Below the pieces are notes generated by a model. The model saw only the letters and a list, made by a program, of their open reading frames with translations. It was not told the DNA's origin and ran no database searches. 64,000 nucleotides of DNA from an uncultured delta proteobacterium (GTDB lineage: Bacteria > Desulfobacterota > Binatia > UBA9968). A program made the position numbers and the translations under genes. The stretch lies in NCBI GenBank assembly GCA_963771465.1, contig CAVYTU010000017.1, positions 224,001 through 288,000 of the forward strand. The letters run 5' to 3'. Numbering within the stretch: position 1 is the first letter of the stretch; the number at the start of each line of letters is the position of its first letter. Below are positions 2,221 through 54,566 of this stretch, piece by piece.

Positions 2221-2297
2221 TGGTTGCGGGGCCGGGATTTGAACCCGGGACCTCAAGGTTATGAGCCTTGCGAGCTACCAGACTGCTCCACCCCGCG
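2221..2297 (-). tRNA. tRNA-Met (CAT), initiator-like
   Basis: CGCGGGGTGGAGCAGTCTGGTAGCTCGCAAGGCTCATAACCTTGAGGTCCCGGGTTCAAATCCCGGCCCCGCAACCA; cloverleaf, C1:A72 mismatch, encoded CCA. Confidence 0.95.
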
Positions 2298-16628: not shown

Positions 16629-16685
16629 GATTTCCTCTGTGGTAGTCGCTGCGGCGAGTCCTGTGCCACAGCGACCATGGTCCAA

Positions 16686-17765: not shown

Positions 17766-17782
17766 AAAATTCCTCCTTCGGT

Positions 17783-26907: not shown

Positions 26908-28030
26908 ATGAGCCGTTGCTGCTCAGTGCGCTTCGCCGTTTTCCTCCCAATTACCGCATGGCTTTGCTTCGCGAGCGTCGACTCACGCCGCCGCGCCGAG
27001 TCCCGCGGTCGCCAAGGCCAAGCATGACGCCGAGGCAAAGGGATACATCTTTGAGTCCAGCCGCGATGAGATCGTCGCCAAGGCAAAAAAAGAAGGTGCC
27101 GTTCGGGTGCTGGCATCATCGAGTCCGGCGGCCCTTGCGCCGCTCGTTAAAGCTTTCAAAGACAAATATCCTTTCATCGACGCCCGCGCCACAGAGATCG
27201 TGCGAGAAGATTCGCAGACACGGGCTATGCAATTAAAATCGGGTTCGCGGTTGGACGAAGATGTCATCCACGTTCCGCCGGATCTCTATCCGGATTATCT
27301 GCCGTATTTGAAAAAATTCGACATCGCCGCCATGGCTGAGCACAAAGTCTTGGACATTCCAGTGAAGATGATCGACTCCATTCAGCTGAATCTGGTGGCG
27401 ATGGAAAGCTCGCTACAGGTGGTGGCGTTTAATAAATGTCTCATCGATCCGGCCAAGGTTCCCAATAGCTGGGAAGATTTTCTCAAGCCGGAATTCAAGG
27501 GCAAGAAGTTCCTCGTCGATATCCGCCCTAATCTTGAGACCGTCATGGCCGCCGGAGCGGGTGAGGCGTGGATGGTCAACTACGCCAAGCGAATCGCCGC
27601 GCAGCAACCGATTTGGATTCGCGGCCAAACCAAGACAATCACACAGATCGCCGCCGGCGAGTACACGCTCCATCGCGGCGCGTATTATCAAGGCGTGGTG
27701 CGAAGCATGCGCAAAGATCCGACCGGCTGCCTCCAGTCAAAAATTATCGAGCCGATCCCAGTTCGGGTCGACGGACCGCACGCAGTCTTGGCGACTTCAG
27801 CCAATCCTCACGCGGCTCTGCTCTGGCTGGAATTTATGGCCGGCGTCCAGGGGCAGGCGATCACCGATGAATACGAGCCGGTGAGCGCGTCGGTTTACTC
27901 GCCCGGATCGGTGATCGAGAAGATTGTCAGAGGCAAAAAAGCGTGGATCAGAGATTTGCAGTCGATCGATAAGACGCAGAAATGGATGGCGATGGCGGTC
28001 GAAGCCTTCGGCTTTCCGCGCGGCAACTAA
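26908..28030 (+). CDS. ABC substrate-binding protein (frameshift near 26980)
   Basis: GGAGG-preceded ATG at 26908 with signal peptide; body AKKEGAV...PNSWEDFLKPEFKG...NPHAALLWLEF. Confidence 0.8.
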
Positions 28031-31528: not shown

Positions 31529-31696
31529 TCACCCGGTCACGAACGGTTCCAGTTATCGATGGCCGAGCCGTCGCGCGCCGGTGTCGCTGACGGTGATCGG
31601 TTCGCCGATGAGAGCGGGCGTGCCTTTGAAGTCGATCTGCGTTTTTACCGTGAATGTAAATCCCGGCTCGATGACGATGTCTCTGTCACGCGCTGC
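31529..31696 (-). pseudogene. Diverged copy of the 3' end of the M24-family gene
   Basis: DRDIVIEPGFTFTVKTQIDFKGTPALIGEPITVSDTGARRLGHR*LEPFVTG* versus the C-terminus of 32809-34023. Confidence 0.85.
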
Positions 31697-31822
31697 CTCC
31701 CAAAGGGCGGATGGACTTGCTTTCGGCCGAAACAGAATAGCGGCAAAGAACGCAATGGGCAAAGGAGAACGTATGACAACCACCAGGGAATCTGGCACAA
31801 TGCAGGCGAACGGAGAATGGTT

Positions 31823-32808: not shown

Positions 32809-34023
32809 CTAACCCGTCACAAACGGCTCGAGTTTTCTATGCCCCAATCGGCGTGCGCCGGAATCGCTGACGGTGATCGGTTCGCCGATGAGAGCCGGGG
32901 TGCCTTTGTGCTCGATTTGCGTTTTCACGGTGAAAGTAAATCCCGGCTCGATGACGATGTCTCTGTCATGCGCGGCTGCGCCGGGGCCGACTCTCGGCCG
33001 GTCGGCGCCGAGGCCGTTGGTGTGAACCAGCACGCCGCCGCCTTTGGCGCCGCGCGCTTCCGCCAGGCGGACGAATTCATCGATCAGGCCGCCGATGGTG
33101 TTGCCCGGCTTGACCCACGCGACGATGCCTTGAAAACATTCGACGGCGACGTTGGTCGCGGCGCGGTAAGCGTCGGCGTTTTTGCTGCCGATTAAAATTG
33201 AATGGTTGCATTGTGCCCGGTAGCCTTGCAGGCGCGCGTCGATCTCCTGACAAATCACCTTGCCGTCTTCCATGGCGATGGCAAGCCCCATGGAGTTACT
33301 CGCATTCGCTGTCTTGTTGTTCGAGCCGAGCGAAAGCCGCGCCGGATAGTCAGCGGTGTGCGAGATAAGTACTTTGGCCATCTCGATCCATAGTTCGCCT
33401 TCCTCCATGCCGGGCTTGGCGACCTCCATCATTTTGGCGATCGCCGCTTCATTGGCGTCGGCGATGCGCTGGATAACGGAGATTTCTTCTGGACCTTTGA
33501 CGATGCGCGAGAATTCCAACACGTCGTTGGCCGGTAAGAAGGTCGCCTCCGGCAATGCAGCCTTAATGCGCCGCCAGGTTTCGAACGGGATGGTGCCCTC
33601 GGTCATACGATACTGTGCCAGCAAGCCGGTGATGCCGATGCGGCTTTTGGCGAAACCGAGCTCGTGCAACCGATCGGGAACCAACTTGGAAAAATCGCCC
33701 CAGCGGATATCCGATGGCCAAAATAAATTGGCCGCCCACATGCGCAGCTCGCGCTCGGAAGAAAGAATTGCCGTGACCTCGTCCGACGCGGGAAACACCA
33801 CCCAGGCGCCACCCTGGACGCCGCCCATCTGGCAAAGGTAACGCGAGTTGGCTTGCGGTTCGCCGTTGTCCGCTGCGGGGGCGAGCAAGCAATCTAAGTT
33901 GTGCTCGCGCATCAATTGCCGAACCCGCGCGTAGCGCCGGTCGCGCTCGGCGAGAGAAAAGGACGGCAAGCGCCGTTTGCCATCGGCGCCAGTTTGAAAT
34001 GGATCGACGGGGTTATATGTCAT
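32809..34023 (-). CDS. M24 family (creatinase/aminopeptidase P fold) protein
   Basis: RYARVRQLM, SRIVKGPEEI, KPGMEE, HTNGLG, IEPGFTF; metal ligands look degenerate. Confidence 0.8.
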   Translation of the reverse strand: MTYNPVDPFQTGADGKRRLPSFSLAERDRRYARVRQLMREHNLDCLLAPAADNGEPQANSRYLCQMGGVQGGAWVVFPASDEVTAILSSERELRMWAANLFWPSDIRWGDFSKLVPDRLHELGFAKSRIGITGLLAQYRMTEGTIPFETWRRIKAALPEATFLPANDVLEFSRIVKGPEEISVIQRIADANEAAIAKMMEVAKPGMEEGELWIEMAKVLISHTADYPARLSLGSNNKTANASNSMGLAIAMEDGKVICQEIDARLQGYRAQCNHSILIGSKNADAYRAATNVAVECFQGIVAWVKPGNTIGGLIDEFVRLAEARGAKGGGVLVHTNGLGADRPRVGPGAAAHDRDIVIEPGFTFTVKTQIEHKGTPALIGEPITVSDSGARRLGHRKLEPFVTG

Positions 34024-34049
34024 CGGTCACCTCGTAAGAAATGGGAATT

Positions 34050-34078
34050 GGCCGCAAAGAACGCAAAGTACACAAAGG
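34050..34078. repeat. Dispersed 9-mer tandem repeat (CGCAAAGAA-like)
   Basis: ggccgcaaagaacgcaaagtacacaaagg; also at 36967, degenerate at ~31740. Confidence 0.6.
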
Positions 34079-35254: not shown

Positions 35255-36959
35255 ATGGCGAATAGGAAATACGGAACCCATCTGAGCCGGCGACAGTTTT
35301 TGCGCCTGGCGGCGGCATCGGGCGCTGCGGTTGGGATTCTGCCTCGCGGTGTCGGGCATGCAGCGCAGGCCGGCAGAAAACGCATCGTTATTCATGGCGA
35401 GCGTCAGGTGACTAGTCTTGGCTATCACAACCGGCGTGAGACGGAGCATGTGTCGATCGTCGATGCCGGACTCGTCGGACAGAACCCGGTGACATTTGAG
35501 CGTGTGCCGGTGCTCGCCGAAGAGTTGCCGTCGGTGAAAAAGGGCACCTGGAAGATCGACCTGCAGAAGAAAACGATGACGACCGTCTATAAGCTGCGGC
35601 CAGGTCTCAAGTGGCACGACGGTAAGCCGTACACGTCAAAGGATTTCGAATTCGGTTGGCAGATCGCTAAGCATCCCGAGTTTCCCATGCCCGATCGGCT
35701 GGTGCCGGAGATGATTTCCAAGATCGAGACACCCGACGACCGCACCATCGTGATTCATTGGAGCGATCTCTACAACGAAGCCTATGCCATTCAATACACT
35801 CACGTGCGCGCGTTTCCGCGCCACCTGTTGCAGGACGCGTTCAGCGCCGGCGACATGAAGGCGTTCGCGAATTTGCCGTATTGGAATAAGAATTTCATCG
35901 GCGCGGGTGCCTTCCGTGTGGCGGAATGGGATCAGGGAAGCCGCGTGGAGTTGGAAGCGTTCAATGATTTTTGCCTGGGCCGGCCGAAGATCGACCGGAT
36001 CACCTACAAGACGGTGGAAGACTCCAACACGAACCTTGCCGCGGTCCTGGCCGGGGAAGTCGATCTGTGCATGCGCAGCACGATCTCCTTCGATGGCGCG
36101 ACGATTTTGCGCGAGCAATGGGAAAAGCAGGGCAAGGGTAAAGTGATGAGTAGCCCGGCGTCGTGGAGTTGGTTGAGTCTCAGCCGGGATAACCCCTGGT
36201 TCAGCGACGTCAAAGTGCGGCGCGCGCTGCTGCATGCCATCGATCGTGATGCCATGACGCAAAATCTTTTCAAGGGCGAAAAAGTCGTGTCGCACTTGCC
36301 GCTGGCGCGCGCCCGCAAGATCAACAGCAAGGCGTTGGCAGTCTCGACGATTTATAAGTATGACGTGGAGCGTGCCAAGAAACTCATGGCGGAAGCGGGG
36401 TGGAAGCCCGGCGCGGACGGCGTATTGACCAACGCTAAAGGCGAGAAGATGGAGTTCGAGTTTCGCGTCACCGCCGAGCGGCGCGATCATGAACAGGCCC
36501 AGGCGGTCATCGCCGACTTTTGGAAAAAGATCGGTGTGCGCACCAACATCAAAAATATGCCCAACCGTTTGCTCAATTCGTCGGAGAATCGCAGCCGCTG
36601 GCCGGGCGCTTACATCGGCTCCCACAACGTGACGGTGGAAGAATGGCCTGAACGGTTTCACTCCAAGAACATTCCGACGGCGGAAAACAAGTACGCGCCG
36701 GAAAACGTGTCGGGGTGGAACGATCCCAAGAAGGATGCGATTCTCGACGATATTAACTCGATCATCAGCACCCGAACAGTCGGAGAAGCTGCAACTCGAA
36801 TTCTGCAGGATGTTTAGCGCGGCGCTGCCGCATCTGCCGCTTTATTTCACGCCGGAAATTCTCGTGGTGAAAAAAGGTTTGACCGGCATCACGCCGCGCC
36901 AGGAGAGCGGCGGGCAGAACTCCAGTAGCTGGAACACCCATAAGTGGGATAAGGTTTAG
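35255..36959 (+). CDS. Family-5 (Opp/Dpp) ABC substrate-binding protein, Tat signal (frameshift near 36768)
   Basis: SRRQFL, LRPGLKWHDGKPYTSKDF, DVKVRRALLHAIDRD; shifted tail matches paralog 44172. Confidence 0.85.
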
Positions 36960-36966
36960 AGAGAAT

Positions 36967-36996
36967 GGCCGCAAAGAACGCAAAGGACGCAAAGAA
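36967..36996. repeat. Dispersed 9-mer tandem repeat
   Basis: ggccgcaaagaacgcaaaggacgcaaagaa. Confidence 0.6.
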
Positions 36997-37021: not shown

Positions 37022-38329
37022 ATGGCAGGTGAGGCAAATGGCGTGGTGGCTTTAAATGTTAAACGGATTGGCCACCTCGATATTCCTGGCGGCGGTCAGG
37101 TGGTGGTGCAGGGGAACCGCGCTTATGTGGGGCATATGGATCCGCCCCATGGGACATCGATTGTCGACGTGACGGACGTTTCGAAACCGAAGATCCTTTC
37201 GACCCTCGAGGTCGCCGACGATAATCACTCGCATAAAGTGCGCGTCAGCGGCGACGTTATGTTGATCAACAACGAAGCGCACCGGCGCCATCAAATGTGG
37301 GGCGGCGCGAAGATTCCGGCGACGCAGACGCGCTTGGAAAAAGAGCTTGGCCGCGCTCCCACCAATGCCGAGCTTGCCGCGGCGCTCAATTACAAGCCGG
37401 AAGATATTCCCGCTTTGTTGAAAGCGGCGGGCGAAGTTTACGACAGCGGCGGTTTGCGCATCTACAATGTCGCCGATCCCTACAAGCCGCGCGAAATCGC
37501 ATTCTTTAAAACCGCCGACACCGGCGTGCATCGCTTCGACTTCGACGGGCGTTATGCCTATATCTCGACCCGCATGGAAGGCTACCACGGCAATATCATG
37601 GTGATCGTCGACGTCGGCGAGCCGAGCAAGCCCAAGGAAGTTTCACGCTGGTGGCTGCCGGGTCAATGGACGGCGGGCGGCGAAAAGCCTTACTGGGGTG
37701 GCGAGCGTTGGGAGTGTCACCATCCGCTGCGCTTCGGCGATCGGCTCTATGTCAGCTATCATCACGCCGGCATCGTGATTCTCGACATCAGCGATATTAC
37801 TAAACCGAAGATGCTGAGCCATTACAATTATCATCCGCCGGTGGATTGCAGCACGCATACCTATGCGCGCATGCCGGTGCGCTTGGACGGCAAAGACATT
37901 GCAGTGGTCGTCGACGAAGAGCCGGGGCGCGCGCGCGCCGGTCATATTCCCGGCTTCATGTGGGTGTTCGACGTGACCGACGAGACCAAGCCGGCGCCGC
38001 TTTCGGCCTATTTCATGTCCGAGCAGGATACGCCGTGGACCCGCGCCGAACATGGCGGCCGCTTCGGCGCGCACCAGTGTCAGGAGCGCATGACCGATAG
38101 TTTGGTTTATCTTACCTGGTTTCGCGGCGGACTCAGGATTGTCGATATCGCCAATCCGCATAAGCCGAAGGAAGTCGGTTACTATATCCCGACGCCCGGC
38201 GCGGGGCACAAGACCGTGCAATCCAACGATGTGTTTCTCGACGGCGAGGGACGGATATATCTGCTCGACCGGTTCAACGGTCTCGATATTCTTGAATACA
38301 CCGGGCCGGCGGGGCAGAAGGCGGCGTAG
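37022..38329 (+). CDS. LVIVD-repeat beta-propeller protein with sigma-70 region-3-like insert (paralog 1)
   Basis: Repeated GLRIYNV/GIVILDISD/GLRIVDIANP..PKEV blades; insert RLEKELGRAPTNAELAAALN. Confidence 0.8.
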   Translation: MAGEANGVVALNVKRIGHLDIPGGGQVVVQGNRAYVGHMDPPHGTSIVDVTDVSKPKILSTLEVADDNHSHKVRVSGDVMLINNEAHRRHQMWGGAKIPATQTRLEKELGRAPTNAELAAALNYKPEDIPALLKAAGEVYDSGGLRIYNVADPYKPREIAFFKTADTGVHRFDFDGRYAYISTRMEGYHGNIMVIVDVGEPSKPKEVSRWWLPGQWTAGGEKPYWGGERWECHHPLRFGDRLYVSYHHAGIVILDISDITKPKMLSHYNYHPPVDCSTHTYARMPVRLDGKDIAVVVDEEPGRARAGHIPGFMWVFDVTDETKPAPLSAYFMSEQDTPWTRAEHGGRFGAHQCQERMTDSLVYLTWFRGGLRIVDIANPHKPKEVGYYIPTPGAGHKTVQSNDVFLDGEGRIYLLDRFNGLDILEYTGPAGQKAA

Positions 38330-38419
38330 TCGAAGCGAAATCAGATGGATTCGCTGTATTCATGCAGGAGAACACCATCGTTTAAAAGCAGAGAATGGTC
38401 GAGTAGCCAGCGGTTTCCG

Positions 38420-38571
38420 AATCCCCCTTTTGGAAAAGGGGGATCAAGCGGGATTTGAGTGGGCGGCGGGCGAGGTCTTCGTTTTAATTTAATCGGTCGC
38501 CTCTCGTATGGTACAACGGCGCAAAATGCGATGAAGAAAATCTCCCCTGGCCCCTCTTTACCAAAGTGGGG
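38420..38571. repeat. Inverted pair of REP-like CCCCCTTT...AAAGGGGG elements
   Basis: aatcccccttttggaaaagggggatcaagcgggattt and aaatctcccctggcccctctttaccaaagtgggg. Confidence 0.65.
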
Positions 38572-38610
38572 TAGAAGAAGAATTGAAAGGCTCTGGATGA
38601 AGGACGACCA

Positions 38611-39918
38611 ATGAAAATGGAAGCAGACGGCGCGGTCGCTTTTAACGTCAAACGGATCGGCCATTTCGATACTCCGGGCGGCGGACAGGTTTTGGTCAAA
38701 GGCAAAACCGCTTTCGTCGGTCACATCGATCCGCCGTACGGAACTTCCATCGTCGATGTCTCGGAGCCAGCGCGGCCGCGGTTGATGGCGAGCTTAGAAG
38801 TGCCGCCCGAGACCCATTCACACAAAGTCCGAGTGGTCGGCGACATCATGGTCATCAACAACGAAAACTACACGCGCCACCAGCAGATCGGCGGCACTCG
38901 GATTCCCGCCGAGCGCGTGCGCCTGGAGAAAGAACTCGGCCGGCCGCCGACGGATGCGGAACTCGCGGGCGCGCTCAACTATTCGGTCGCCGATTTGAAA
39001 TCTTTGATCGAGTCGGCGGCGCGCGGTTATCAGGGCGGCGGCATTCGCATTTTTAACGTGGCCAACCCCGCCCAACCGCGCGAGATTTCATTTTTCAAAA
39101 CCGGCGGCAACGGTGTGCACCGTTTCGATTTCGATGGCCGCTATGCGCATTTATCGACGCGCATGGACGGCTACGAGGGCTACATCGTCATGATCGTCGA
39201 TCTCAAAGATCCGGCGCGGCCGCAAGAAGTCTCGCGCTGGTGGCTGCCGGGGCAGTGGGTCGCCGGCGGCGAAAACCCTTACTGGGGCTACGAGCGTTAC
39301 GAATGCCATCATCCGATGCGCTTCGGCGATCGGCTCTACGTCAGTTACTGCATGGCGGGTTTGGTGATTCTCGATATCGGCGATATCGCCAACCCCAAAG
39401 TCATTGGGCGCTATAATTATCATCCGCCCTTCTTCAAGACCCACACCTTTGTTCCCGCGCCGTTCAAAATGGCCGGCAAGAACGTCGCCGTCGCAGTCGA
39501 CGAACAGCCGCCGCGGCCGCGTCCGGAACAGGTACCGGCGTTTATGTGGGTGTTCGATGTCAGCGCTGAGTCGGATATCAAACCGTTGTCGGCGTATTCC
39601 ATGTCGGAGTCGGACACGCCGTGGACCCGCGCCGAGCATGGCGGGCGTTTTGGTGCGCACCAATGCCACGAGCGCATGACCGACAGTTTGGTCCATGTGA
39701 CTTGGTTTCGCGGCGGCTTGCGCATCGTCGACATCGCCGATCCGTTGAAACCGAAAGAAGTAGGCCACTACATTCCGCCGCCGGGCAAAGGTCAGAAGAC
39801 GCCGCAGTCCAACGACGTATTCGTCGACGGCCAAGGATTGATTTACCTCATCGATCGGCTCAACGGTCTGGACATTCTCGAATACAGCGGGCCGGCGGGA
39901 CAAAAATCCGCGGCTTAA
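38611..39918 (+). CDS. LVIVD-repeat beta-propeller protein with sigma-70 region-3-like insert (paralog 2)
   Basis: Same length (435 aa) and motifs; RLEKELGRPPTDAELAGALN. Confidence 0.8.
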   Translation: MKMEADGAVAFNVKRIGHFDTPGGGQVLVKGKTAFVGHIDPPYGTSIVDVSEPARPRLMASLEVPPETHSHKVRVVGDIMVINNENYTRHQQIGGTRIPAERVRLEKELGRPPTDAELAGALNYSVADLKSLIESAARGYQGGGIRIFNVANPAQPREISFFKTGGNGVHRFDFDGRYAHLSTRMDGYEGYIVMIVDLKDPARPQEVSRWWLPGQWVAGGENPYWGYERYECHHPMRFGDRLYVSYCMAGLVILDIGDIANPKVIGRYNYHPPFFKTHTFVPAPFKMAGKNVAVAVDEQPPRPRPEQVPAFMWVFDVSAESDIKPLSAYSMSESDTPWTRAEHGGRFGAHQCHERMTDSLVHVTWFRGGLRIVDIADPLKPKEVGHYIPPPGKGQKTPQSNDVFVDGQGLIYLIDRLNGLDILEYSGPAGQKSAA

Positions 39919-40000: not shown

Positions 40001-41059
40001 ATGGCTGCGAATCGAAATCTAGTGTGGCTCGGGTTGACAATCGTTACCGTGCTCGGCTTTAGCTCCAGTGCGTCAAGCCAGCGGCTGGGAAAAAATCTTG
40101 ACGAAATCATCCAGCTCGCCAATAAAGAAAAAAACGTCCGGGTGGCGACCTCGTGGGAGCCAGAAAATGAGACGGCGCTGCTCAAAGGATTCACGCAGAA
40201 ATATCCCGGTATCAAGATTTCCACCGATCGCATCAGCGGCATCGATACCCGCGAGCGGATTATGAACGAAGCGCTTGGCGGTATCGTCGATCATGATCTG
40301 GTCAATGTGTCGGGCGAACTGCGCAATCAATACATCAAGTCCGGTGTGCTCGCCGGGCCGATACCGTGGAAAACTCTATTTCCCAAAATCAACGAGCGTC
40401 ATTTCAGTCCCGATGGTTATTTCGCCGCCAGCGGCTTTAGCACTTACATCATCGCCTACAACCCGACGCTGGTGCCGAAGGACAAAGTGCCGAAAAGTTG
40501 GAACGACTGTCTCGATCCGTACTGGAAAGGAAAGTTAGTGGTGTTGACTCGGCCGCGCACATTTACCGGACTGGCGCCCGGATGGGGTGAGGAGAAAACT
40601 CTTGCCTTCGCGCGCGCGCTCAAGGACAACCAGCCGGTATGGAAGAGCAGTCAAACCGGCGCCCTGACGCAGGTTGCCGTTGGTGAGTATCCGATGATCT
40701 GCGGCATGGCCTACCATTCTTTAAAGAGCACGATGATGCGCGACCCTACTGCGAAGGCCGCTTACGCCGTGCCCTCCGATCTGCCGTTTCAGATTGGCGA
40801 AGCGATGGGCATCATGAAAGGCGCCAAGAATCCCAATGCGGCGCTCGCTTTGACCGGCTGGTTGGTGACGCCGGAAGGACAAAAAAATATGGATCTCGAA
40901 GGCCGCAGCTCACCCTTTGTGCCGGGCACCGAGGCGGCTGAATTGATCAAGAAGCATAAGGCGAAAATTGTTTTCGAAAGTTGGGACGCCCTACAACACG
41001 AAGCCGAAATGGCGCGCAAAATCACCGCCGCATGGGGTTTCCCGAAGGCGAAGAACTAG
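40001..41059 (+). CDS. ABC substrate-binding protein (Fe3+/thiamine-type fold)
   Basis: Signal peptide; AYNPTLVP...PKSWNDCLDPYWKGK; NPNAALA. Confidence 0.85.
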   Translation: MAANRNLVWLGLTIVTVLGFSSSASSQRLGKNLDEIIQLANKEKNVRVATSWEPENETALLKGFTQKYPGIKISTDRISGIDTRERIMNEALGGIVDHDLVNVSGELRNQYIKSGVLAGPIPWKTLFPKINERHFSPDGYFAASGFSTYIIAYNPTLVPKDKVPKSWNDCLDPYWKGKLVVLTRPRTFTGLAPGWGEEKTLAFARALKDNQPVWKSSQTGALTQVAVGEYPMICGMAYHSLKSTMMRDPTAKAAYAVPSDLPFQIGEAMGIMKGAKNPNAALALTGWLVTPEGQKNMDLEGRSSPFVPGTEAAELIKKHKAKIVFESWDALQHEAEMARKITAAWGFPKAKN

Positions 41060-41198
41060 CAGCGAAGATTGATTAACGGCAAATAGCGCAAAATGGGAAA
41101 TTCGCAATTGAATAAAATCCAAAGCTTCGCGCTCGTAGCCGGTGGTGAGCGTCGTCGATCCATGCCCTTCGTTTAATCCATTTCTTGACAAGGACTTT

Positions 41199-42953
41199 AT
41201 GAGAACCATTGCCATCCCGCGTCCTAGCGTGCAGATCTTCAGCCGTATCAAAGGCAACTTCATCCCTTATGCGTTGACCGGCTTTTTGCTTTTCTTGATC
41301 ATCATTCCATTGGCGCGTTTGCTGCTCAGTAGCTTTCAATTGGGACATCCGGCGATCCCCGAAGGCTGGACGCTGCAAAACTATCTGACTGCCTACCAGA
41401 TGCCACTGTTCTATCAAGCGCTCGGCACGACGATCGTGATCTCAGCCATCGGCACGTTGCTGACGGTGGGGATCTCAGTAGGGTTCGCTTGGCTGATCGA
41501 ACGCACCGATATGCCGCTGCGTAATCTAGCTTGGGCCTTGATCTTGATTCCAATGGCGATACCGGGCGTTTTGTTCGCTCTCGGTTGGGCGCTCTTGCTG
41601 TCGCCCAAGACCGGCGTGTTGAATATCTTGCTGCGCAGCGGCCTCGATATTTTTGGGATTCAAGTCGACGCTGGGCCGCTGAATATTTATTCCGTCGGCG
41701 GGCTGATTTTTCTTGATGGCCTGCGGGGCGTGACCACCGTGTTTCTCATGGTCGTCGGCGCCTTTCGCATGATGGACCCAACCATGGAAGAAGCGGCGCG
41801 GGTGGCCAAAGCCAACGGCCGACGCGCGTTTTTCCAGGTGACCTTGCCGGCCTTGATGCCGGCGATTCTCGGCGCGGCGATCTATTCCTTTATCTCCAGC
41901 ATGGAGTCCTTCGAAGGCCCGCTCGCCATCGGACTGCCCGGCGGTATTTTCGTGCTGAGCACATTGATTTATTTCACCACGCGATTGCAGGCGCCGCTGG
42001 ATTACGGTTTGGGCGCGGTGTTCGGTGTCATATACATGGTGATGATGCTGGTCTTGCTCGCCGGCTATCGGCGCATCGTGCGCCACTCCGAGCGCTATTC
42101 GACGATAACCGGCAAAGGCTTTCGCCCGCGCGTGGTCTCCATCGGCAAATGGCGCTATCCGGCGCTCGGTATGTTCGTGTTGTACTTTCTAGTCACGGTG
42201 GGCGCGCCGTTCCTGGTTCTCCTGTGGGCATCCTTATTGCCCAGTTACCGCGTGCCGTCGGAGGAAGCGCTCAGTTTAGTCACGCTCAACAACTACGCGC
42301 AAATTTTTGCCATGCCGCGGATCGCCTCGACAGTTTGGAATACGCTGGTGCTGATGGTGCTTTCGGCCACCGCCACCATGTTGCTGGCGTTTTTCGTCTC
42401 ATGGATAATCGTGCGCACGGAGCTGCGCGGCCGTGGGACGCTCGATGCGGTGACGTTTTTTCCCCACGCCGTGCCCGGCATCGTCATCGCGCTCGCCTTG
42501 ATGATGGCTTACCTGAGCCCGCCGCTAAAATATTTAAGCATCTACGGCACGGTCTGGATTCTCGCCATGGGCTTTATCGTGAGTTACATCGCGTTCGCCA
42601 CGCGTTTGATGAACAGTTCGATCATTCAAGTGCAGAAGGAATTGGAACAGGCGGCCTATGTTTGCGGCGCGACGCCGACGCGGACGTTGATGGCAATTAC
42701 TTTGCCGCTGATCTTTCCCGCTTTTGCCGCGGGTTGGATTTGGGTTGCCGTGCATGTGCTGCGCGGTTTTTCCATTCCACTCATGTTATCGAGCAAGAAC
42801 AATCAGGTGTTTGCCGTTGCCCTGTGGGAGTTTTGGGATCGCGGCATGGTCTCCATGGCGTCCGCGCTGGGCGTCTTGCTTATTATTGTCTTAATTCCGA
42901 TGACGCTCATCATGCGCCGCTTCATCATGAGCGTAAGCGCCCAGGAAAGGTAG
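41199..42953 (+). CDS. ABC permease, FbpB-type
   Basis: MEEAARVA and LEQAAYVCGA EAA motifs; start MRTIAIP. Confidence 0.9.
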   Translation: MRTIAIPRPSVQIFSRIKGNFIPYALTGFLLFLIIIPLARLLLSSFQLGHPAIPEGWTLQNYLTAYQMPLFYQALGTTIVISAIGTLLTVGISVGFAWLIERTDMPLRNLAWALILIPMAIPGVLFALGWALLLSPKTGVLNILLRSGLDIFGIQVDAGPLNIYSVGGLIFLDGLRGVTTVFLMVVGAFRMMDPTMEEAARVAKANGRRAFFQVTLPALMPAILGAAIYSFISSMESFEGPLAIGLPGGIFVLSTLIYFTTRLQAPLDYGLGAVFGVIYMVMMLVLLAGYRRIVRHSERYSTITGKGFRPRVVSIGKWRYPALGMFVLYFLVTVGAPFLVLLWASLLPSYRVPSEEALSLVTLNNYAQIFAMPRIASTVWNTLVLMVLSATATMLLAFFVSWIIVRTELRGRGTLDAVTFFPHAVPGIVIALALMMAYLSPPLKYLSIYGTVWILAMGFIVSYIAFATRLMNSSIIQVQKELEQAAYVCGATPTRTLMAITLPLIFPAFAAGWIWVAVHVLRGFSIPLMLSSKNNQVFAVALWEFWDRGMVSMASALGVLLIIVLIPMTLIMRRFIMSVSAQER

Positions 42954-42963
42954 CCCCCAGCCA

Positions 42964-44055
42964 ATGAAAGTTACTGTTACCGGTTTGGCCAAAACTTTTC
43001 GTACGATGGACGGCAAAGTCGACGCGATCCATGATCTGAATTTTGAAGTTCAGCCGGGCCAATTCTACACCCTGCTCGGGCCGAGCGGCTGCGGCAAGAG
43101 CACGACGCTGCGTTGCCTGGCCGGCCTGGAGCGGCCCGATGCAGGTGAGATTAGGATCGGCGATCAAATCGTTTCGTCCGCCAATGTGTTTCTGCCGCCC
43201 AACGAGCGGCCCATCGGCATGGTATTTCAATCCTATGCTATCTGGCCGCATATGACGGTCTTCAACAACGTCGCTTTTCCGCTGAAGCAGCAAAAGGTGC
43301 CCAAGGCCGAACGCGAGCGCTTGGTCATGGAAGCGTTGTCGTTGGTGCAGATGGCCGAGCTCGCGCCGCGGCCGGCGCCCAATTTGAGCGGTGGCCAGCA
43401 ACAGCGCGTCGCGTTGGCGCGCGCACTCGTTTCCAAACCGCAGGTGCTGTTGTTGGACGAGCCGCTGAGTAATCTCGATGCCAAGCTGCGCGAGGAGTTA
43501 CGCTTCGAAATCAAAGAATTGTTGCGCCGATTGGGCATCACGGCGCTCTATGTCACGCACGATCAGGCTGAAGCGTTGACCATGTCGGACCGCGTCGCCG
43601 TGATGTTCGGTGGGCAAATTCTCCAAGAGGCGAGCCCGCGGGAACTCTATCTCAAACCCAGCGCCAAGTTCGTCGCCCAATTCATCGGCCAGGTAAATTT
43701 TTTCGCCGGGAAAATTGCGCCGGGCTCAGCCAACGGCATGGGCGTGGTGCAAACCGCTCAGGGCGATTTTCATTGCGCGTTGTCGCCGACTTTGCAGAGT
43801 GGCAGTAGCGCATTGGTGGCCGTGCGGCCGGAAAGCATCATGGTGTCAGCCGAACAGCCGGCGAATGGCTTCAATGTGCTGCGCGGACAAGTCGAGAAGA
43901 GCGTATTTCTCGGCGACTTTATCGACTGCCAGATTCGCGTCGGCGAACAACTCGTTCACGTCAAGCTGGCGCCGACCAGCGATCTGAGCGACGCCGACAA
44001 AGTGTTTTTGCAATTCGCCGCGCACGCGTGCATCGTTCTGCCCACCGCGGATTAG
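42964..44055 (+). CDS. ABC ATP-binding protein
   Basis: GPSGCGKS, LSGGQQQR, DEPLSNLD. Confidence 0.93.
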   Translation: MKVTVTGLAKTFRTMDGKVDAIHDLNFEVQPGQFYTLLGPSGCGKSTTLRCLAGLERPDAGEIRIGDQIVSSANVFLPPNERPIGMVFQSYAIWPHMTVFNNVAFPLKQQKVPKAERERLVMEALSLVQMAELAPRPAPNLSGGQQQRVALARALVSKPQVLLLDEPLSNLDAKLREELRFEIKELLRRLGITALYVTHDQAEALTMSDRVAVMFGGQILQEASPRELYLKPSAKFVAQFIGQVNFFAGKIAPGSANGMGVVQTAQGDFHCALSPTLQSGSSALVAVRPESIMVSAEQPANGFNVLRGQVEKSVFLGDFIDCQIRVGEQLVHVKLAPTSDLSDADKVFLQFAAHACIVLPTAD

Positions 44056-44171: not shown

Positions 44172-45875
44172 ATGGCTACTCGCAAGAGTAAACCGCTGAC
44201 TCGGCGCGAGTTTATTGCGAATGCTACATTGGCGGCCGTCGGTCTCAGCATTTCTTCGCGCGCCAAGCCATTGTTCGCCGCGCAAACCGGGCAGAAGCGG
44301 TTAATGATGATGGGCGGCCGGCGCACGGCCGGCTTTGCCAATCATGGGCGATCGGACACCGAGCTTACCGGTTTAGTCGATGCCGGACTGGCGGGACAGA
44401 ATCCGATTACCCTGGAGCGCTTTCCGTTGCTCGCAGAGGAGCTGCCTTCGGTCAACAAGGGAACGTGGAAGATCGACCGGCAAAAGAAAACCATGGTTAC
44501 GGTTTACCGTCTGCGTCCCGGTCTCAAGTGGTCCGACGGCAAGCCGCATACGGCGCAGGATTTCAAGTTCGGTTGGGAGGTGCACCGTCATCCGGAGTTC
44601 CCGCTGCGCGATCGCTTGGTGCCGGATATGATCGAAAAGATCGAAACCCCCGACGACCGCACCATCGCGATTCACTGGAAGGCGCTCTACACCGAGGCCC
44701 ACGCGATTCAAAAGCAGCAACTGCGCGCCTGGCCGCGCCATATTCTCCAAGATGCGTTTCAGGCGGGAGATATCAAAGGCTTGGTGCGCGACGCCTACTG
44801 GAATCAAAAATTTGTCGGCACCGGGCCGTACCGCTTGCTCGACTGGGGCGGCGGCGCGCAGATCGAAGCCGAGGCCAATCCGTATTACGCGCTGGGTAAA
44901 CCGAAAATCGATCGGGTAACATTCAAAGTCGTCGAAGACAGCAATACCGCGCTTTCCGCCATGCTCGCCGGGGAGGTGGATTTTGCCCTGCGCGATACAC
45001 TGTCATTCGACGGCGCGCTGGTCTTGAAAGAACAGTGGGAGGCCAAAGGACTCGGCACGATCAGCATCCGGCCAATCACATTTCGCTGGCTCAATCTGAG
45101 CGGCACCAATCCGCTCTTCAAAGACGTACGCGTCAAGCGCGCCCTGCTCCACGCCATTGACCGCAACACCATGGTGAACAATATTTTCCGCGGCGTGGCG
45201 CCAATCATTCACTTTCCACTGTCGCCGTTTCGCAAGGCCTATAAGCGCGCCGATCAGGCGGCGCTGAAATACGAGTACAACGTCGACAAGGCAAAGCAGC
45301 TTTTGGGCGAAGCCGGCTTCACCACCGGTTCCGACGGAGTGTTGGCGAACGCCAAGGGCGAACGTATGGAGTTCGAGTTCCGTACCGAAGCGGGCAGCCG
45401 GGAAGACGAACAAGCGCAGGCGATCATCGTCGATTACTGGAAAAAAATCGGCGTGCGGGCGCAGATCAAAAACCTGGCGCCGCGGGTATTCAATTCCGAG
45501 GAGTTTCGTAACCGCTGGCCCGGCGCGGCCCTGGGCGGGCAAAATCTCGTCGTCGAAGAGTGGGCCGAGCGTTTTCACAGCGCCGGTACGCCCACCGCGG
45601 AAAATCGCTGGGCATCGGAGTCGGTCTCGCTCTGGCAGAATCCTCAAGCGGACAAGATCATGGACGAGCTGAATACGATCATTCCCGAAGCGCGGGCCAC
45701 CGACCTGCAAGTGGAGTTTGTGAAATTATTCACCCGCGACTTGCCATACTTGCCGCTCTACTACCGGCTTGAATGGCTGGCCATCCGAAAAGGGCTGAGC
45801 GGCATCACGCCGCGCATCGAAAGCGGCGGGCAAAATATGAACACCTGGAATATGCATCTGTGGGACAAAACTTAG
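44172..45875 (+). CDS. Family-5 ABC substrate-binding protein, Tat signal
   Basis: TRREFI, LRPGLKWSDGKP, VGTGPYRL; paralog of 35255. Confidence 0.9.
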   Translation: MATRKSKPLTRREFIANATLAAVGLSISSRAKPLFAAQTGQKRLMMMGGRRTAGFANHGRSDTELTGLVDAGLAGQNPITLERFPLLAEELPSVNKGTWKIDRQKKTMVTVYRLRPGLKWSDGKPHTAQDFKFGWEVHRHPEFPLRDRLVPDMIEKIETPDDRTIAIHWKALYTEAHAIQKQQLRAWPRHILQDAFQAGDIKGLVRDAYWNQKFVGTGPYRLLDWGGGAQIEAEANPYYALGKPKIDRVTFKVVEDSNTALSAMLAGEVDFALRDTLSFDGALVLKEQWEAKGLGTISIRPITFRWLNLSGTNPLFKDVRVKRALLHAIDRNTMVNNIFRGVAPIIHFPLSPFRKAYKRADQAALKYEYNVDKAKQLLGEAGFTTGSDGVLANAKGERMEFEFRTEAGSREDEQAQAIIVDYWKKIGVRAQIKNLAPRVFNSEEFRNRWPGAALGGQNLVVEEWAERFHSAGTPTAENRWASESVSLWQNPQADKIMDELNTIIPEARATDLQVEFVKLFTRDLPYLPLYYRLEWLAIRKGLSGITPRIESGGQNMNTWNMHLWDKT

Positions 45876-45899
45876 GTTCCGAGTTTACCGAAACATTTC

Positions 45900-46871
45900 A
45901 TGCTCCACTATCTGCTCCGCCGGACCTATCAGCTCGTGCCGCTGCTGCTGGTCATTTCGGCGTTCATCTATTTGCTGCTTTATCTCATGCCGGGCGATCC
46001 GCTCTATCGGATGCTCGAAGACGTCCCTAACCTGCGGCCGCAAGACTATGAGCGGTTGCGCAAGATCTACGGCCTGGACGATCCGGTTTACATTCAATAC
46101 TGGAAATGGCTCTGGCAATTGATCCTGCTCAACCCCGGCTACTCGCGCGAGTATGGCCAGCCGGTGATCGAGATCATCCTGCCGGCGCTGAAAAATACCT
46201 TGGTGTTGACCATTAGCGCCGTGGTGATCGGCAAAGTTCTGGCGATTCTGTTGGGAATTTTTTCCGCCGTACGGCAATATTCCATCGGCGACTACATTCT
46301 CACGGCGGTGACTTTTATCTCTTACTCCGTGCCGGCGTTTTGGCTCGGCCTCATGTTGATCATTTTATTTTCCGTTAAGCTCGGTTGGCTGCCGACTTCC
46401 GGCATCGCCGATAGCAATCTGGTGGCCGGTAGCTGGGAAGCGTGGTGGGACTACCTCAAGCATATGATTTTGCCGGTGGCGGTGTTGGCCATTTCGGAAA
46501 TCATCCAGGTGCAGCGTTTCATGCGCTCCAGTTTGTTGGAAGTGCTGCGCCAGGATTACTTAACCACCGCGCGCGCCAAAGGTTTGAGCGAACCGGTCGT
46601 CATCGGCCGTCACGCGCTCAAGAATGCGCTGATTCCGGTGGTGACGATCATCGCCGTGACCATGCCCCGCGTGGTTGGCGGCTCGACGGTGGTCGAAACC
46701 GTGTTCGCCTATCCCGGCATGGGCCGGCTGCTGTTTACGTCGATCATGGCCAATGACTACGTCGTGGCGATGACCGTGGTCATGATCATCGCGGTGACCG
46801 TGGTGTTTTTTAATTTGCTGGCGGACGTGATTTACGGCTGGCTCGATCCGCGCATTCGCTATCAGAGTTGA
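45900..46871 (+). CDS. Peptide/nickel ABC permease (OppB/DppB-like)
   Basis: MPGDP, QDYLTTARAKGL, HALKNALIP, LDPRIR. Confidence 0.92.
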   Translation: MLHYLLRRTYQLVPLLLVISAFIYLLLYLMPGDPLYRMLEDVPNLRPQDYERLRKIYGLDDPVYIQYWKWLWQLILLNPGYSREYGQPVIEIILPALKNTLVLTISAVVIGKVLAILLGIFSAVRQYSIGDYILTAVTFISYSVPAFWLGLMLIILFSVKLGWLPTSGIADSNLVAGSWEAWWDYLKHMILPVAVLAISEIIQVQRFMRSSLLEVLRQDYLTTARAKGLSEPVVIGRHALKNALIPVVTIIAVTMPRVVGGSTVVETVFAYPGMGRLLFTSIMANDYVVAMTVVMIIAVTVVFFNLLADVIYGWLDPRIRYQS

Positions 46872-46874
46872 AAA

Positions 46875-47789
46875 ATGGCTGATCACGTTACTAGCATCAC
46901 CGATAGCCAAGCGCTGCTCGCCCACGCTGCCGAACCACATCCGAGCTATTGGCGCGTGGTCTGGCGCCGCTTCAAGCAGCACCGCGTCGCCTACGTCGGT
47001 TTCTTTTTTTTCATGTTTCTGCTTTTTCTCGTCGTCGCCGGTCCGTACATGGTGCCCTACGAGCTTGATCAAGTATCGCTGGCGGAACGCATGCACATGC
47101 CGTCGGCGCGACACTGGTTCGGCACCGATGAGTTGGGGCGCGATACCTGGGTGCGCATCATGCACGGTGGGCGCGTCTCGCTCACCGTCGGCTTGATCGT
47201 TGGTTTCAGCACCGTCATTCTCGGCGGCCTGATCGGCATACTTGCCGGTTACGTCGGCGGCTTCGTGGACAATGCCTTGATGCGCTTGGTTGACACCATC
47301 TACACGATCCCGCGCATCGTCTTACTATTGGTTCTATCGAAACTCGCCGGGCCGGGGTTGCTCAACATCATCATCATCCTCGTCGCGTTGGAGTGGACCA
47401 ACGCGGCGCGCTTGGCGCGCAGCGCCGTGTTGTCGTTTCGCGAGCAAGAGTTCGTCCTCGCCGCTCAATGTCTCGGGGCGTCGCGCTGGCGCGTCATGCT
47501 GCGCCATCTGCTGCCGAATTCTCTCGCGCCGCTGATCGTCGCCGCGACGCTGGATGCCGGCGCCGCCATTCGCGCCGAAACCACGCTGAGCTTTCTCGGT
47601 CTGGGCATTCAACCCCCGACGCCGAGCTGGGGCAATTTGCTGACCAATGCCGCGACGAATATTTTCATCGCACCGCTGCAAGTATTCCTGCCGGGATTGT
47701 TTATTTTCTTCGCGTTGATGAGCTTCAACCTGCTCGGCGACGCGCTGCGCGATGCGCTCGATCCGCGCTTGTCGAAAACAAGGGGATAA
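46875..47789 (+). CDS. Peptide/nickel ABC permease (OppC/DppC-like)
   Basis: HWFGTDELGRD, HLLPN, LSFLGLG..PPTPSWG, GDALRDALDPR. Confidence 0.92.
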   Translation: MADHVTSITDSQALLAHAAEPHPSYWRVVWRRFKQHRVAYVGFFFFMFLLFLVVAGPYMVPYELDQVSLAERMHMPSARHWFGTDELGRDTWVRIMHGGRVSLTVGLIVGFSTVILGGLIGILAGYVGGFVDNALMRLVDTIYTIPRIVLLLVLSKLAGPGLLNIIIILVALEWTNAARLARSAVLSFREQEFVLAAQCLGASRWRVMLRHLLPNSLAPLIVAATLDAGAAIRAETTLSFLGLGIQPPTPSWGNLLTNAATNIFIAPLQVFLPGLFIFFALMSFNLLGDALRDALDPRLSKTRG

Positions 47790-53543: not shown

Positions 53544-54566
53544 ATGAACGGTATGGCTATTTTCTTTATCGCGGTGGCGTTGCTGAGCCAGGGATTCGCC
53601 GCGTGGGCGCAAGATCATACGAGCAAGCTGGTGGAGGGCGCCAGAAAGGAAGGGAAACTAGTCGTCTATACATCGATGAATCAGCGCGATGCGTCGCTGC
53701 TGGTTCAGGATTTCAAGAAGCGCTATCCATTTATCGATGGCCAAATCTTTCGCGCCAACTCGCAAAAGCTCTTGCCACGCATCGAAACCGAAGCGCGCGC
53801 CAAGAAATACCAAGCCGATGTTTTCACCGCTTCCTTCCCAATCTGGCCGGAACTGATCAGACAGAAGCTGGTTTTGCCTTATCAATCGCCGGAAAGCCTG
53901 CGCTATCCTAAAGAACTAAAAGACCCGAACGGCTACTGGACGATACTCTATTTGCAGGTCATGGGCATGGCTTATAACACCCGACTGATCCCGGCCGGCA
54001 GCGCGCCGAAGCGGTACGAAGATCTTTTGAGCCCGCGTTGGAAGAAGCAGGAAATCGGCATGGATTATCGGGACAACACTTGGTTCGCGGTGATGATGGA
54101 GATCATGGGAGAGAGCGAAGGTTTGAATTTCATGAAACGGCTGGCGGCCAAGGATCTTTACATGCGGGAGAACAAAAGTTTGTTGACCCAGCTTATGGCG
54201 GCAGGCGAGTTCCTCATTCTGACCAACACTTACGTTGATACGGCAGCCGAGTACATCAAATCCGGAGCGCCCATCGCCTGGTTGCCGGGACGGGATCCCG
54301 TGCCGGCGTCGACTCATCTTTTGGGCATCCACGCCTTTGCGCAAAATCCCAACGCCTCCAGATTATTTGTCGACTTTCTATTGTCGCGAGACGGACAAAA
54401 AGCCTTAAGCGGCGGCGCTGTGGCGAAGTTTCCGGCCAATCCCGAGGTCGACTCGGATTTAAAGGCGATGGTCAAAGGGCACAAGCTGCATCCCATCGAC
54501 CCCACCATGGCGTCGAAATTTGATCGATTGACCAAGAACTATGAAGAAATTTTTTGGAAAAAGTAG
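53544..54566 (+). CDS. ABC substrate-binding protein (orphan)
   Basis: EGARKEGKLVVYTS, AYNTRL, YEDLLSPRWK, NPNASRLFVDFLLS. Confidence 0.88.
   Translation: MNGMAIFFIAVALLSQGFAAWAQDHTSKLVEGARKEGKLVVYTSMNQRDASLLVQDFKKRYPFIDGQIFRANSQKLLPRIETEARAKKYQADVFTASFPIWPELIRQKLVLPYQSPESLRYPKELKDPNGYWTILYLQVMGMAYNTRLIPAGSAPKRYEDLLSPRWKKQEIGMDYRDNTWFAVMMEIMGESEGLNFMKRLAAKDLYMRENKSLLTQLMAAGEFLILTNTYVDTAAEYIKSGAPIAWLPGRDPVPASTHLLGIHAFAQNPNASRLFVDFLLSRDGQKALSGGAVAKFPANPEVDSDLKAMVKGHKLHPIDPTMASKFDRLTKNYEEIFWKK

Follow-up and report, generated by a model that had tools for sequence, protein, structure and literature searches.

The locus described here raises the question of why an apparent enzyme should carry a piece of a bacterial sigma factor. 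We analyzed a window of 64,000 nucleotides of contig CAVYTU010000017.1 (assembly GCA_963771465.1), assigned to an uncultured member of the Binatia, in which two tandem genes encode LVIVD-repeat beta-propellers that share a short insert resembling sigma domain 3. Propeller copy 1 (P0001; 37022..38329, + strand) and propeller copy 2 (P0002; 38611..39918, + strand) are co-directional and are both preceded by good ribosome-binding sites; each encodes a protein of 435 amino acids, and the two products are 67% identical. The analysis revealed a widespread and real architecture, apparently new to description, in which a propeller metalloenzyme resembling the phosphotriesterase of Sphingobium sp. TCM1 (Sb-PTE) bears a grafted sigma domain 3. 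The propeller proteins are not sigma factors. Their likeness to Sb-PTE is at the level of the putative metal site, but their sequences point to a different enzyme, and the best reading is that of a cytoplasmic metallohydrolase, of the lactonase or ring-opening type, with the sigma-derived domain as its cap. The combination of an LVIVD propeller with a sigma domain-3 insert was described nowhere in the literature searched, a body of text that excludes most subscription journals.

A sigma domain-3 module within a propeller

The initial annotation of this DNA had described the products as two 435-residue LVIVD paralogues without signal peptides, each with an insert of about 45 residues matching sigma region 3 and lacking sigma regions 2 and 4, and all of these points were borne out. 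Both open reading frames were confirmed, and both proteins matched Pfam LVIVD (PF08309) with 59.2 and 49.4 bits (cut-off 20.2). The AlphaFold2 model of copy 1, built on a 116-row alignment, is a seven-bladed propeller with a predicted local distance difference test score (pLDDT) of 94.6. Helices at residues 89-96, 98-109, 115-122, and 126-136 interrupt the propeller behind strand 2 of blade 2. No signal peptide was apparent, judging without a dedicated signal-peptide predictor from the first strand, which starts at residue 9, and from the absence of a twin-arginine translocation (Tat) match. We then compared the proteins within a set of 250 sequences, comprising the full-length relatives listed, the locus proteins, and 45 full-length distant representatives (of 150 listed). 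The insert was present in 191 of these, and at most 12 residues precede the first-strand position in 184 of the 191.

The insert forms a 45-residue unit of three helices in the loop right after E85, at about residues 92-136 of copy 1 (37295..37429, + strand) and at 38884..39018 (+ strand) in copy 2, close to where it had initially been placed. Pfam Sigma70_r3 matched residues 97-138 of copy 1 (E 1.1e-7, 32.3 bits, cut-off 25.3) and residues 104-137 of copy 2 (E 5.1e-5, 23.7 bits, just under that cut-off), the match spanning profile positions 5-46 of 78. The region 3.2 finger is missing: the match stops at position 46 and the chain re-enters the propeller at strand 144-149. Neither full protein matched Sigma70_r2 or Sigma70_r4 of Pfam at E<=0.1, and the NCBIfam sigma models gave 11-17 bits against cut-offs of 190-530. 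Among 83 inserts of the family, 81 matched Sigma70_r3 at E<=1, while the runner-up Pfam family was matched by 8. When the insert profile was queried against 177,635 PDB sequences, the top 50 matches were sigma factors and the first non-sigma match appeared at E 0.0026; the best was sigmaF from the SpoIIAB complex (1L0O, E 1.9e-9), followed by cyanobacterial SigA, FliA, and WhiG.

Structural comparison also pointed to sigma factors. The insert modeled in isolation consists of three helices with a helix-turn-helix-like arrangement (pLDDT 74.7), and the six best matches in a fold search of 48,161 chains were sigma factors. Specifically, the alignments to sigmaB (Z 8.3, root-mean-square deviation (rmsd) 2.5, 55 residues aligned) and sigmaF (Z 8.0, rmsd 1.6, 53 of 57 aligned, 34% identity) were trailed by generic helix-turn-helix domains at Z 6.3 and below, and the best Foldseek match (E 0.017) was also sigmaF. 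Since Z scores of this size are weak evidence for small helical domains, the case rests on the agreement of sequence and structure, and from this agreement we conclude that the insert is a homologue of sigma domain 3 (regions 3.0-3.1).

The sequence and fold of regions 3.0-3.1 are thus shared with domain 3 of sigma-70 factors (sigmaF 1L0O, sigmaB 8X6G, FliA 1RP3, WhiG 6PFV, and SigA), among which the group-3 sigma factors are the closest class. Unlike a sigma factor, the insert amounts to about 45 residues without regions 1.2, 2, 3.2, and 4, and it sits in the loop of an enzyme. Unlike sigma domain 3 it has a proline kink in the 3.0 helix, which is broken by Pro99 in 157 of the 191 insert-bearing proteins at a position where five sigma alignments have R, K, K, K, and E. 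In addition, the position equivalent to RpoD E458 is reversed to arginine in 137 of the 191 and is glutamate in one, and the insert is acidic, with a mean net charge of -1.4 (-1.1 in the last helix).

The insert profile also matched residues 112-137 of cyanobacterial SigA (8H3V), a second sigma3-like stretch that lies N-terminal of region 2 and is seen as well at 121-146 of 9DVS. This suggests that an additional sigma3-like module can be found at another site of a protein. The second stretch of SigA stays within a sigma factor, whereas that of the propeller sits in an unrelated enzyme. A search with the insert against plasmids and phages returned only sigma factors, family members, and chance matches at E>0.05; none of the best 60 of 76 plasmid matches was a different enzyme bearing the insert. 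A word-limited, short-form search found no stand-alone insert, both of its two candidates being truncated family members.

Homology to Sb-PTE and the putative metal site

The propellers had initially been called an uncharacterised metalloenzyme or sensor. The metalloenzyme part of that proposal gained support, from ligand conservation and from homology to Sb-PTE, a key homologue that had been missed and that names the likely chemistry. Sb-PTE ranked first in single-sequence, profile, Foldseek, and VIA-align searches. A profile of 48 insert-less relatives matched it end to end (positions 11-383, E 1.1e-25; next match 2.7e-5), Foldseek gave E 1.3e-17 (next 5.7e-9), and VIA-align gave Z 32.9 (rmsd 3.2, 354 aligned, 22% identity) with a generic WD40 protein as runner-up (Z 32.1, rmsd 2.6, 309 aligned, 10% identity). 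Against Sb-PTE entry 5HRM, VIA-align gave Z 33.6 (rmsd 3.2, 353 aligned). A binuclear metal center in a seven-bladed propeller is announced in the title of Mabanglo et al. 2016 on Sb-PTE, as given in the reference list of PMC11656708. The title of PDB entry 5IOJ, also of Sb-PTE, names manganese.

We take the metal ligands of Sb-PTE to be E201 (bridging), H258 and H317, and H389, H475, and E407, and the expected letters were found at those numbers; Tyr219 is presumably catalytic. In the HMMER alignment H258, H389, and H475 fall directly on H170, H279, and H351 of copy 1, and shifting the alignment by hand over a few positions brings H317 and E407 onto H233 and E299. All five residues are kept in 190-191 of the 191 insert-bearing proteins, in 14 of 14 close insert-less relatives, and in 42-45 of the 45 distant ones. 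H71, H170, H233, H234, and H279 occur in all 191 insert-bearing homologues and H351 in 190, and E85 is found in 190 of them and in 38 of the 45 distant relatives. All 14 close insert-less relatives retain H69, H71, E85, H170, H233, H279, E299, and H351. The histidine motifs that had suggested a central site (HSHK, VHRF, CHHP, THT, and GAHQ) are present, and their key histidines are near-invariant.

The placement of these residues in the fold is also regular. In blades 2-6 the inner strand begins with a histidine (H71, H170, H233, H279, and H351, respectively), and in blades 2 and 5 strand 2 closes with a glutamate (E85 and E299), an arrangement that by standard propeller geometry would put the site residues on one face round the channel mouth. 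We infer the convergence of the histidines from this shared start-of-strand position in successive blades together with the homology to Sb-PTE, which likewise has histidines at the inner-strand start of blades 3-6 and a glutamate closing strand 2 of blade 5. Based on conservation, the Sb-PTE alignment, and blade positions, the putative metal site of copy 1 spans 37226..38074 (+ strand), with codons starting at 37226 (H69), 37232 (H71), 37274 (E85), 37529 (H170), 37718 (H233), 37856 (H279), 37916 (E299), and 38072 (H351). In copy 2 the putative site comprises H69, H71, E85, H170, H233, H278, E298, and H350 and spans 38815..39660 (+ strand). From its conservation and position, E85 may be the best candidate for replacing the bridging glutamate.

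The seven-bladed LVIVD-type propeller is common to these proteins and to Sb-PTE, a haloalkylphosphorus hydrolase (5HRM, 5IOJ). In contrast to Sb-PTE, the window proteins have no export signal, none of its Cys pairs, extra histidines, the sigma3 insert, and a transporter-linked catabolic context, and phosphotriesterase activity is not implied. Passages of PMC13611039 report close homologues of Sb-PTE only from Sphingomonadaceae, and lactonase is given as the primary activity of phosphotriesterase-like enzymes in a passage of the review PMC11277490. Signal-peptide-like N-termini were noticed by eye in the distant insert-less relatives P0147, P0213, P0225, P0240, P0251, and P0269, possible exported forms closer to Sb-PTE.

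Other propellers are less similar. The choice-of-anchor B family (TIGR04312) is a distantly related LVIVD-like propeller (E 1e-13) that scored 51.4 and 28.3 bits, far below its curated cut-off of 100. SBP56 and methanethiol oxidase (MtoX) are also distant relatives (E 0.006-0.04) far below their curated cut-offs, with 15.9 bits against 34 and 12.4 against 650, respectively. SBP56, NosZ, and carotenoid oxygenase were absent from the best 50 matches of the fold searches.

Distribution, naming, and evolution of the insert

The closest named relatives of the two proteins come from Candidatus Binatia and similar genome bins, and a word-based search in which 8000 candidates were scored yielded at least 4564 relatives. 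The initial annotation had anticipated that homologues might carry misleading sigma-factor names, and such names do occur. Among the 120 matches listed, five are named 'RNA polymerase subunit sigma-70' and one 'sigma-70 domain-containing protein', and the RefSeq family member WP_244451195.1 carries a sigma-70 name as well. In the ESM Atlas only unnamed LVIVD/Sigma70_r3 clusters and one 'sigma-70' were found. The partial mis-annotation of this family means that sigma-factor counts in genomes are inflated. A search for fusions among proteins longer than 762 residues gave 108 matches and no Rosetta-stone partner, which is weak evidence. The one close match, P0274, looks like a frameshift artefact with garbled flanks, and the others were surface LVIVD proteins of 20-39% identity.

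Insert-bearing proteins were found in Alphaproteobacteria, Betaproteobacteria, and Binatia-like lineages, and the loop is 58-59 residues long in 188 of the 191. Among 122 aligned proteins the insert was missing in 12, and in 11 of these the loop is exactly 45 residues shorter. We mapped the insert on trees computed without the insert columns, where the insert-bearing proteins share a single region of the family with 14 proteins that lack it. A subsample tree of 52 rows needed three insert changes, and forcing the insert-bearing proteins to be monophyletic (34 versus 18 rows, LG+G4) gave p 0.052 in the approximately unbiased test. A single gain followed by losses is therefore plausible from these trees. 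With 42% pairwise identity against 60% in the core, the insert is the faster-evolving part, and its conservation is mostly at the fold-determining positions L105, L109, G110, R111, P113, E117, and A119. Conserved surface positions are R89, H90, R93, P99, and D128.

Genomic context of the propeller genes

In a genome scan, at least 576 of 600 stretches were confirmed, from which 79 loci with 84 propeller genes were kept; 58 of the loci are labeled Alpha- or Betaproteobacteria. A link to imported ligands, proposed initially for the window, was seen across these loci in the form of adjoining TctA/TctC or ABC importer genes. A Tct gene occurs in 59 of the 79 loci (TctA and TctC by Pfam, TctB by annotation). 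Among the 78 propeller genes with an upstream gene, TctA lies immediately upstream and co-directional in 27 and TctC in 10 more, and the gaps between Tct and propeller genes are mostly shorter than 70 bp. The 27 operon TctC proteins form a clade of their own, with a mean identity of 52% within the clade and 19% to other TctC. Their distances co-vary with those of the propellers (Mantel r 0.77, p 0.0005, 27 loci, with shared host ancestry not removed). One operon TctC matches Bug proteins, weakly. The loci of this dedicated clade are L010, L013, L039, L045, L054, and 22 more, and Tat-like leaders are seen in the five whose sequences were printed.

In the window's own clade, ABC importers take the place of the Tct system, and they are orthologous in loci L003 and L005. 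Upstream of copy 1 lies a Tat-signal family-5 solute-binding protein (35255..36960, + strand), frame-broken near 36770; its orthologue (75%) precedes the L003 propeller gene and the same cluster precedes that of L007. Downstream of copy 2, an ABC importer (40001..44055, + strand) comprises an SBP_bac_6 binding protein (40001-41059), a permease (41142-42953), and an ATPase (42964-44055), and orthologues of this set lie directly upstream of the L005 propeller gene (50% and 72% identity). The binding protein gave no indication of a ligand, the Fe3+/AfuA type matching at only E 6e-9 and phnS2 remaining far below cut-off. A second family-5 binding protein with two permeases follows (44172..47789, + strand), an arrangement also found after the L003 propeller gene.

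Recurring neighbors include FAA-hydrolase, aldo-keto reductase, OsmC, alpha/beta hydrolases, Amidohydro_2, DHDPS, IlvD/Edd, HpcH aldolase, TauD, and TauE, and some loci also contain GntR, LysR, or IclR regulators. Distant insert-less relatives on plasmids adjoin tetronate, AI-2, hydroxy-acid, and sulfur-acquisition genes, with one lacking such a context. Overall, the context suggests catabolism of imported solutes. A comparable case is CadB1 (WP_265212042.1), a 409-residue LVIVD protein of Herbaspirillum lusitanum TQ07 that PMC13191619 counts as an enzyme of the chloranilic-acid pathway. It adjoins a solute-binding protein and stands with Amidohydro_2-like and DHDPS-family genes, like several propeller loci, a likeness by description only. 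The three genes described there as characterised are cadA, cadC, and cadD, not cadB1.

Two further patterns were observed among the neighbors. An OsmC-like gene lies directly downstream of the propeller in 7 of 80 cases (L008, L009, L010, L012, L021, L024, and L035), making it the commonest named downstream neighbor. In the betaproteobacterial loci L047, L057, L060, L065, L072, and L079, an IlvD/Edd dehydratase gene lies divergently upstream of the propeller gene, usually also with an HpcH aldolase and a sodium:sulfate-symporter-family gene, a module of the sugar-acid type.

Two copies and oligomeric state

The initial annotation had suggested that the two paralogues may hetero-oligomerise, for which nothing specific emerged. 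Both copies are more closely related to proteins from other sources (up to 91% and 87%) than to each other, and the two copy types (6 and 11 sequences) show fixed differences at 16 positions. On the active-site rim these differences include, from copy 1 to copy 2, N68T, A86N, H247C, C276F, S277K, and E300Q, and positions 274 and 308 differ in the predicted dimer surface. The copy 2 type forms a separate stable sub-lineage. Two propeller copies were present in 5 of 79 loci, adjacent in one (L070), and the remaining 74 had a single copy in the stretch fetched, many contigs being short. L003 and L007, which share the upstream neighbor of the window, have only one propeller gene directly after it, although the L007 sequence ends inside that gene. 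Given the closer outside relatives, the rim differences, and the rarity of double loci, diverged isoenzymes with different substrates would fit better than an obligate heterodimer.

Two-copy structure prediction with Mn gave a homodimer score of 0.86 for copy 1, compared with 0.00 for the best of three controls. Of 30 proteins solved as pairs, 20 reached the mark for a homodimer, as did 1 of 23 solved as single chains, a rough guide here because the run used its own alignment and had Mn along. The runs agreed in at least 94% of contacts with pLDDT of at least 92, and the protein is probably a homodimer on the strength of these models. The predicted interface of copy 1 spans 37835..38173 (+ strand; residues 272-275, 305-315, 326-335, 340-342, and 380-384) and is formed by blades 5-6, where the conserved YHPP motif contributes P272-P273. 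Since the insert is outside the predicted interface, with none of its residues among those named, it is probably not dimer glue.

Proposed function and alternative explanations

We consider it reasonably probable that the locus encodes catabolic binuclear propeller hydrolases with a sigma3-derived cap. The product of each gene would be a seven-bladed metalloenzyme that belongs to the Sb-PTE superfamily, resides in the cytoplasm, and probably forms homodimers. Two divalent metals (Mn, Zn, Co, or Fe) would presumably lie at the mouth of its central channel. The metals would be held by H279/H351/E299 and by H170/H233, with E85 (and possibly H71) in place of the bridging glutamate, and a metal-bound hydroxide would hydrolyze what may be a small carboxylate-bearing lactone, ester, or ring compound. 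This substrate would be imported by a co-transcribed transporter, TctCBA in Proteobacteria and the ABC importers in the window, and neighboring dehydratase, aldolase, FAA-hydrolase, and reductase would complete its catabolism. The insert, which directly follows E85 on the metal face of the topology, may have been repurposed from a group-3 sigma factor: a module of regions 3.0-3.1 would have been grafted after E85 in one subclade and retained as an active-site cap or lid, to which its first helix would supply the conserved R89/H90/R93.

Several observations weigh against this proposal. Identity to Sb-PTE is 18-22%, and in the wide search the Z margin over generic WD40 was below 1. The H69-S70-H71 stretch aligned to what we take to be the bridging Glu201 contains no glutamate, so that Glu201 itself is not maintained, and a manual reading of the blade register puts E85 at the position of Tyr219, presumably catalytic in Sb-PTE. 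The additional invariant H38, H69, H71, H234, and H271 could form another metal cluster or support oxygenase chemistry. The position of the insert over the active site is deduced from the predicted topology, and its tightly held length fits a lid but would fit a partner-binding site too. Finally, host phylogeny may account for part of the co-divergence of TctC and propeller, and these genomes are rich in Tct genes.

The histidines offer the main alternative on the side of chemistry, namely that the His-rich crown is a site for Fe(II) or Cu and that the protein is an oxygenase, oxidase, or lyase, such as a ring-cleaving dioxygenase or a methanethiol-oxidase-like enzyme, in the same operon role and with the insert still a cap. 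Propellers with four-histidine iron sites exist, for example the carotenoid oxygenases. Within the subfamily up to eight histidines hardly vary and Glu201 is not retained, there are the weak matches to SBP56 and MtoX (E 0.006 and 0.039), and the chloranilic-acid cluster table of PMC13191619, the cluster of the CadB1 likened above, shows no named ring-cleavage dioxygenase. On the other side, the scores for SBP56 and MtoX are far below cut-off, and the single significant solved relative, Sb-PTE, is a hydrolase. Moreover, H38, H69, H71, H234, and H271 are less conserved outside the subfamily (among the 45 distant relatives H69 occurs in 16, H71 in 19, and H271 in one), where the Sb-PTE ligand set is kept, and we regard this alternative as unlikely. 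On the side of the insert, its conserved core, its faster evolution, its absence from nested relatives, and the three changes needed on the tree would also be expected of a passenger of old domain shuffling, tolerated and kept because it folds. A near-constant loop length across Alphaproteobacteria, Betaproteobacteria, and Binatia-like lineages and the conserved surface residues R89/H90/R93, P99, and D128 make such a passenger very improbable.

Alternatively, the insert might still act in transcription, as the initial annotation had envisaged. As a functional sigma mimic, it would dock an RsbW/SpoIIAB-type anti-sigma kinase, and the enzyme would be a decoy linking imported ligand to transcription or would itself be controlled by partner switching. 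Its best sequence match is indeed the SpoIIAB-bound sigmaF domain and its best folds are sigmaB and sigmaF; it is exposed, outside the predicted dimer interface, and constant in length. D128 (Asp in 158 and Glu in 13 of 191) aligns with sigmaF Asp148, which a passage of PMC7340262 describes as the acidic residue at the clash point with the anti-anti-sigma factor, kept in sigmaB, but D128 is at a helix start, where acids are common. Two plasmid loci have an extracytoplasmic function (ECF) sigma/FecR pair or a sigma-like helix-turn-helix gene 8-11 kb from the propeller. Against this, the position of sigmaF V137 is mostly Asp (126 of 191) and that of E149 is variable (Glu in 40 of 191); we take both to be SpoIIAB contacts. 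Sigma, anti-sigma, STAS, RsbW-type kinase, and FecR families were represented by 0 of the 249 neighbor representatives scanned, that is, 209 proteins of 85-300 residues, one per cluster, from 381 minor clusters (E<=1e-8), and 40 representatives of recurring clusters; the other 172 minor clusters and part of the recurring set (17 among the top 59, by eye transporters and enzymes) fell outside the scan. Partner genes need not be linked, so that this absence is weak evidence. The 14 close relatives without insert keep the whole metal site, and sigma2, sigma4, and the 3.2 finger are absent, all of which told against the initial proposal of a link to transcription. PhyR also has a sigma-like domain in a non-sigma protein, but it mimics ECF sigma2/sigma4 and comes with a receiver domain and nepR/ecfG linkage, none of which was seen for the propeller. 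We hold it improbable that RsbW/SpoIIAB-type kinases or other sigma3-binders dock functionally on the insert in Proteobacteria and Binatia-like bacteria. A trigger enzyme, whose insert would contact DNA or core RNA polymerase directly and so control the operon of the enzyme itself, could draw on the three-helix fold, on weaker matches to LexA, DeoR, and NsrR types (Z 6.1-6.3), on the gap-free alignment of H90 with RpoD H455, and on the two inserts that a dimer would present. The acidic charge, Pro99, and the arginine at the position of E458, which we take to be the extended -10 contact, make DNA reading and core-polymerase binding unlikely; the main core-binding elements are those just named as absent, and the ordinary regulators of some loci also speak against a trigger enzyme, which we find barely credible.

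The cap-bearing hydrolase thus preferred would supply a likely chemistry for a large uncharacterised family (at least 4564 clusters), and as natural relatives of the flame-retardant-degrading Sb-PTE these proteins offer a way into its ancestral activity. They are also a clear case of a domain of the transcription machinery recruited by an enzyme, for which the insert-less relatives are natural controls. The substrate could be approached directly through the dedicated TctC clade, and some hosts are in culture (Ancylobacter, Skermanella, and Pelagibius); operon TctC proteins from such hosts include those of Ancylobacter polymorphus (WP_244451192.1) and Pelagibius marinus. If docking were true after all, substrate under the cap might expose or hide the insert, making a widespread catabolic metalloenzyme a ligand-gated anti-sigma decoy, or the propeller might be the missing target of partner-switching systems without a cognate sigmaB-type factor; either way, the mimicry would rest on sigma3 and differ from that of PhyR.

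Other features of the window

Rfam gave a single match over the whole window, a tRNA gene at 2224-2297 (- strand). Promoter-like sites (5 versus 6.1 expected) and terminator-like sites (26 versus 16.8 expected) showed nothing specific, and repeats merely mirrored the paralogy of the two propeller genes.

Divergent from the propeller genes are an M24/creatinase-like peptidase gene (32809-34023, - strand), with an orthologue beside the L003 locus (69%), and a frame-broken gene for an HsaD/BphD-like alpha/beta hydrolase (35091 to ~34152, - strand). A stray second C-terminal end of the M24 peptidase lies at 31532-31729 (- strand; 54% to the L003 orthologue). Reading-frame switches were seen in three nearby genes, namely the family-5 binding protein already mentioned, the alpha/beta hydrolase (near 34330), and an FAD oxidase (31182-29796, - strand) that appears as two overlapping open reading frames. 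As intact orthologues of the binding protein and the hydrolase exist, these switches may be assembly indels or recent pseudogenes.

Uptake genes are strongly expanded within the 64 kb, with four SBP_bac_6-type and two family-5 binding proteins and many major facilitator superfamily genes (14886-18853, 27107-28030, 40001-44055, and 53544-54566). Finally, an intergenic repeat of about 29 nucleotides occurs at 34049-34077, where it precedes the M24 gene, and at 36957-36994, ahead of propeller copy 1. The two copies belong to opposite transcriptional units and are possibly a small repeated element.

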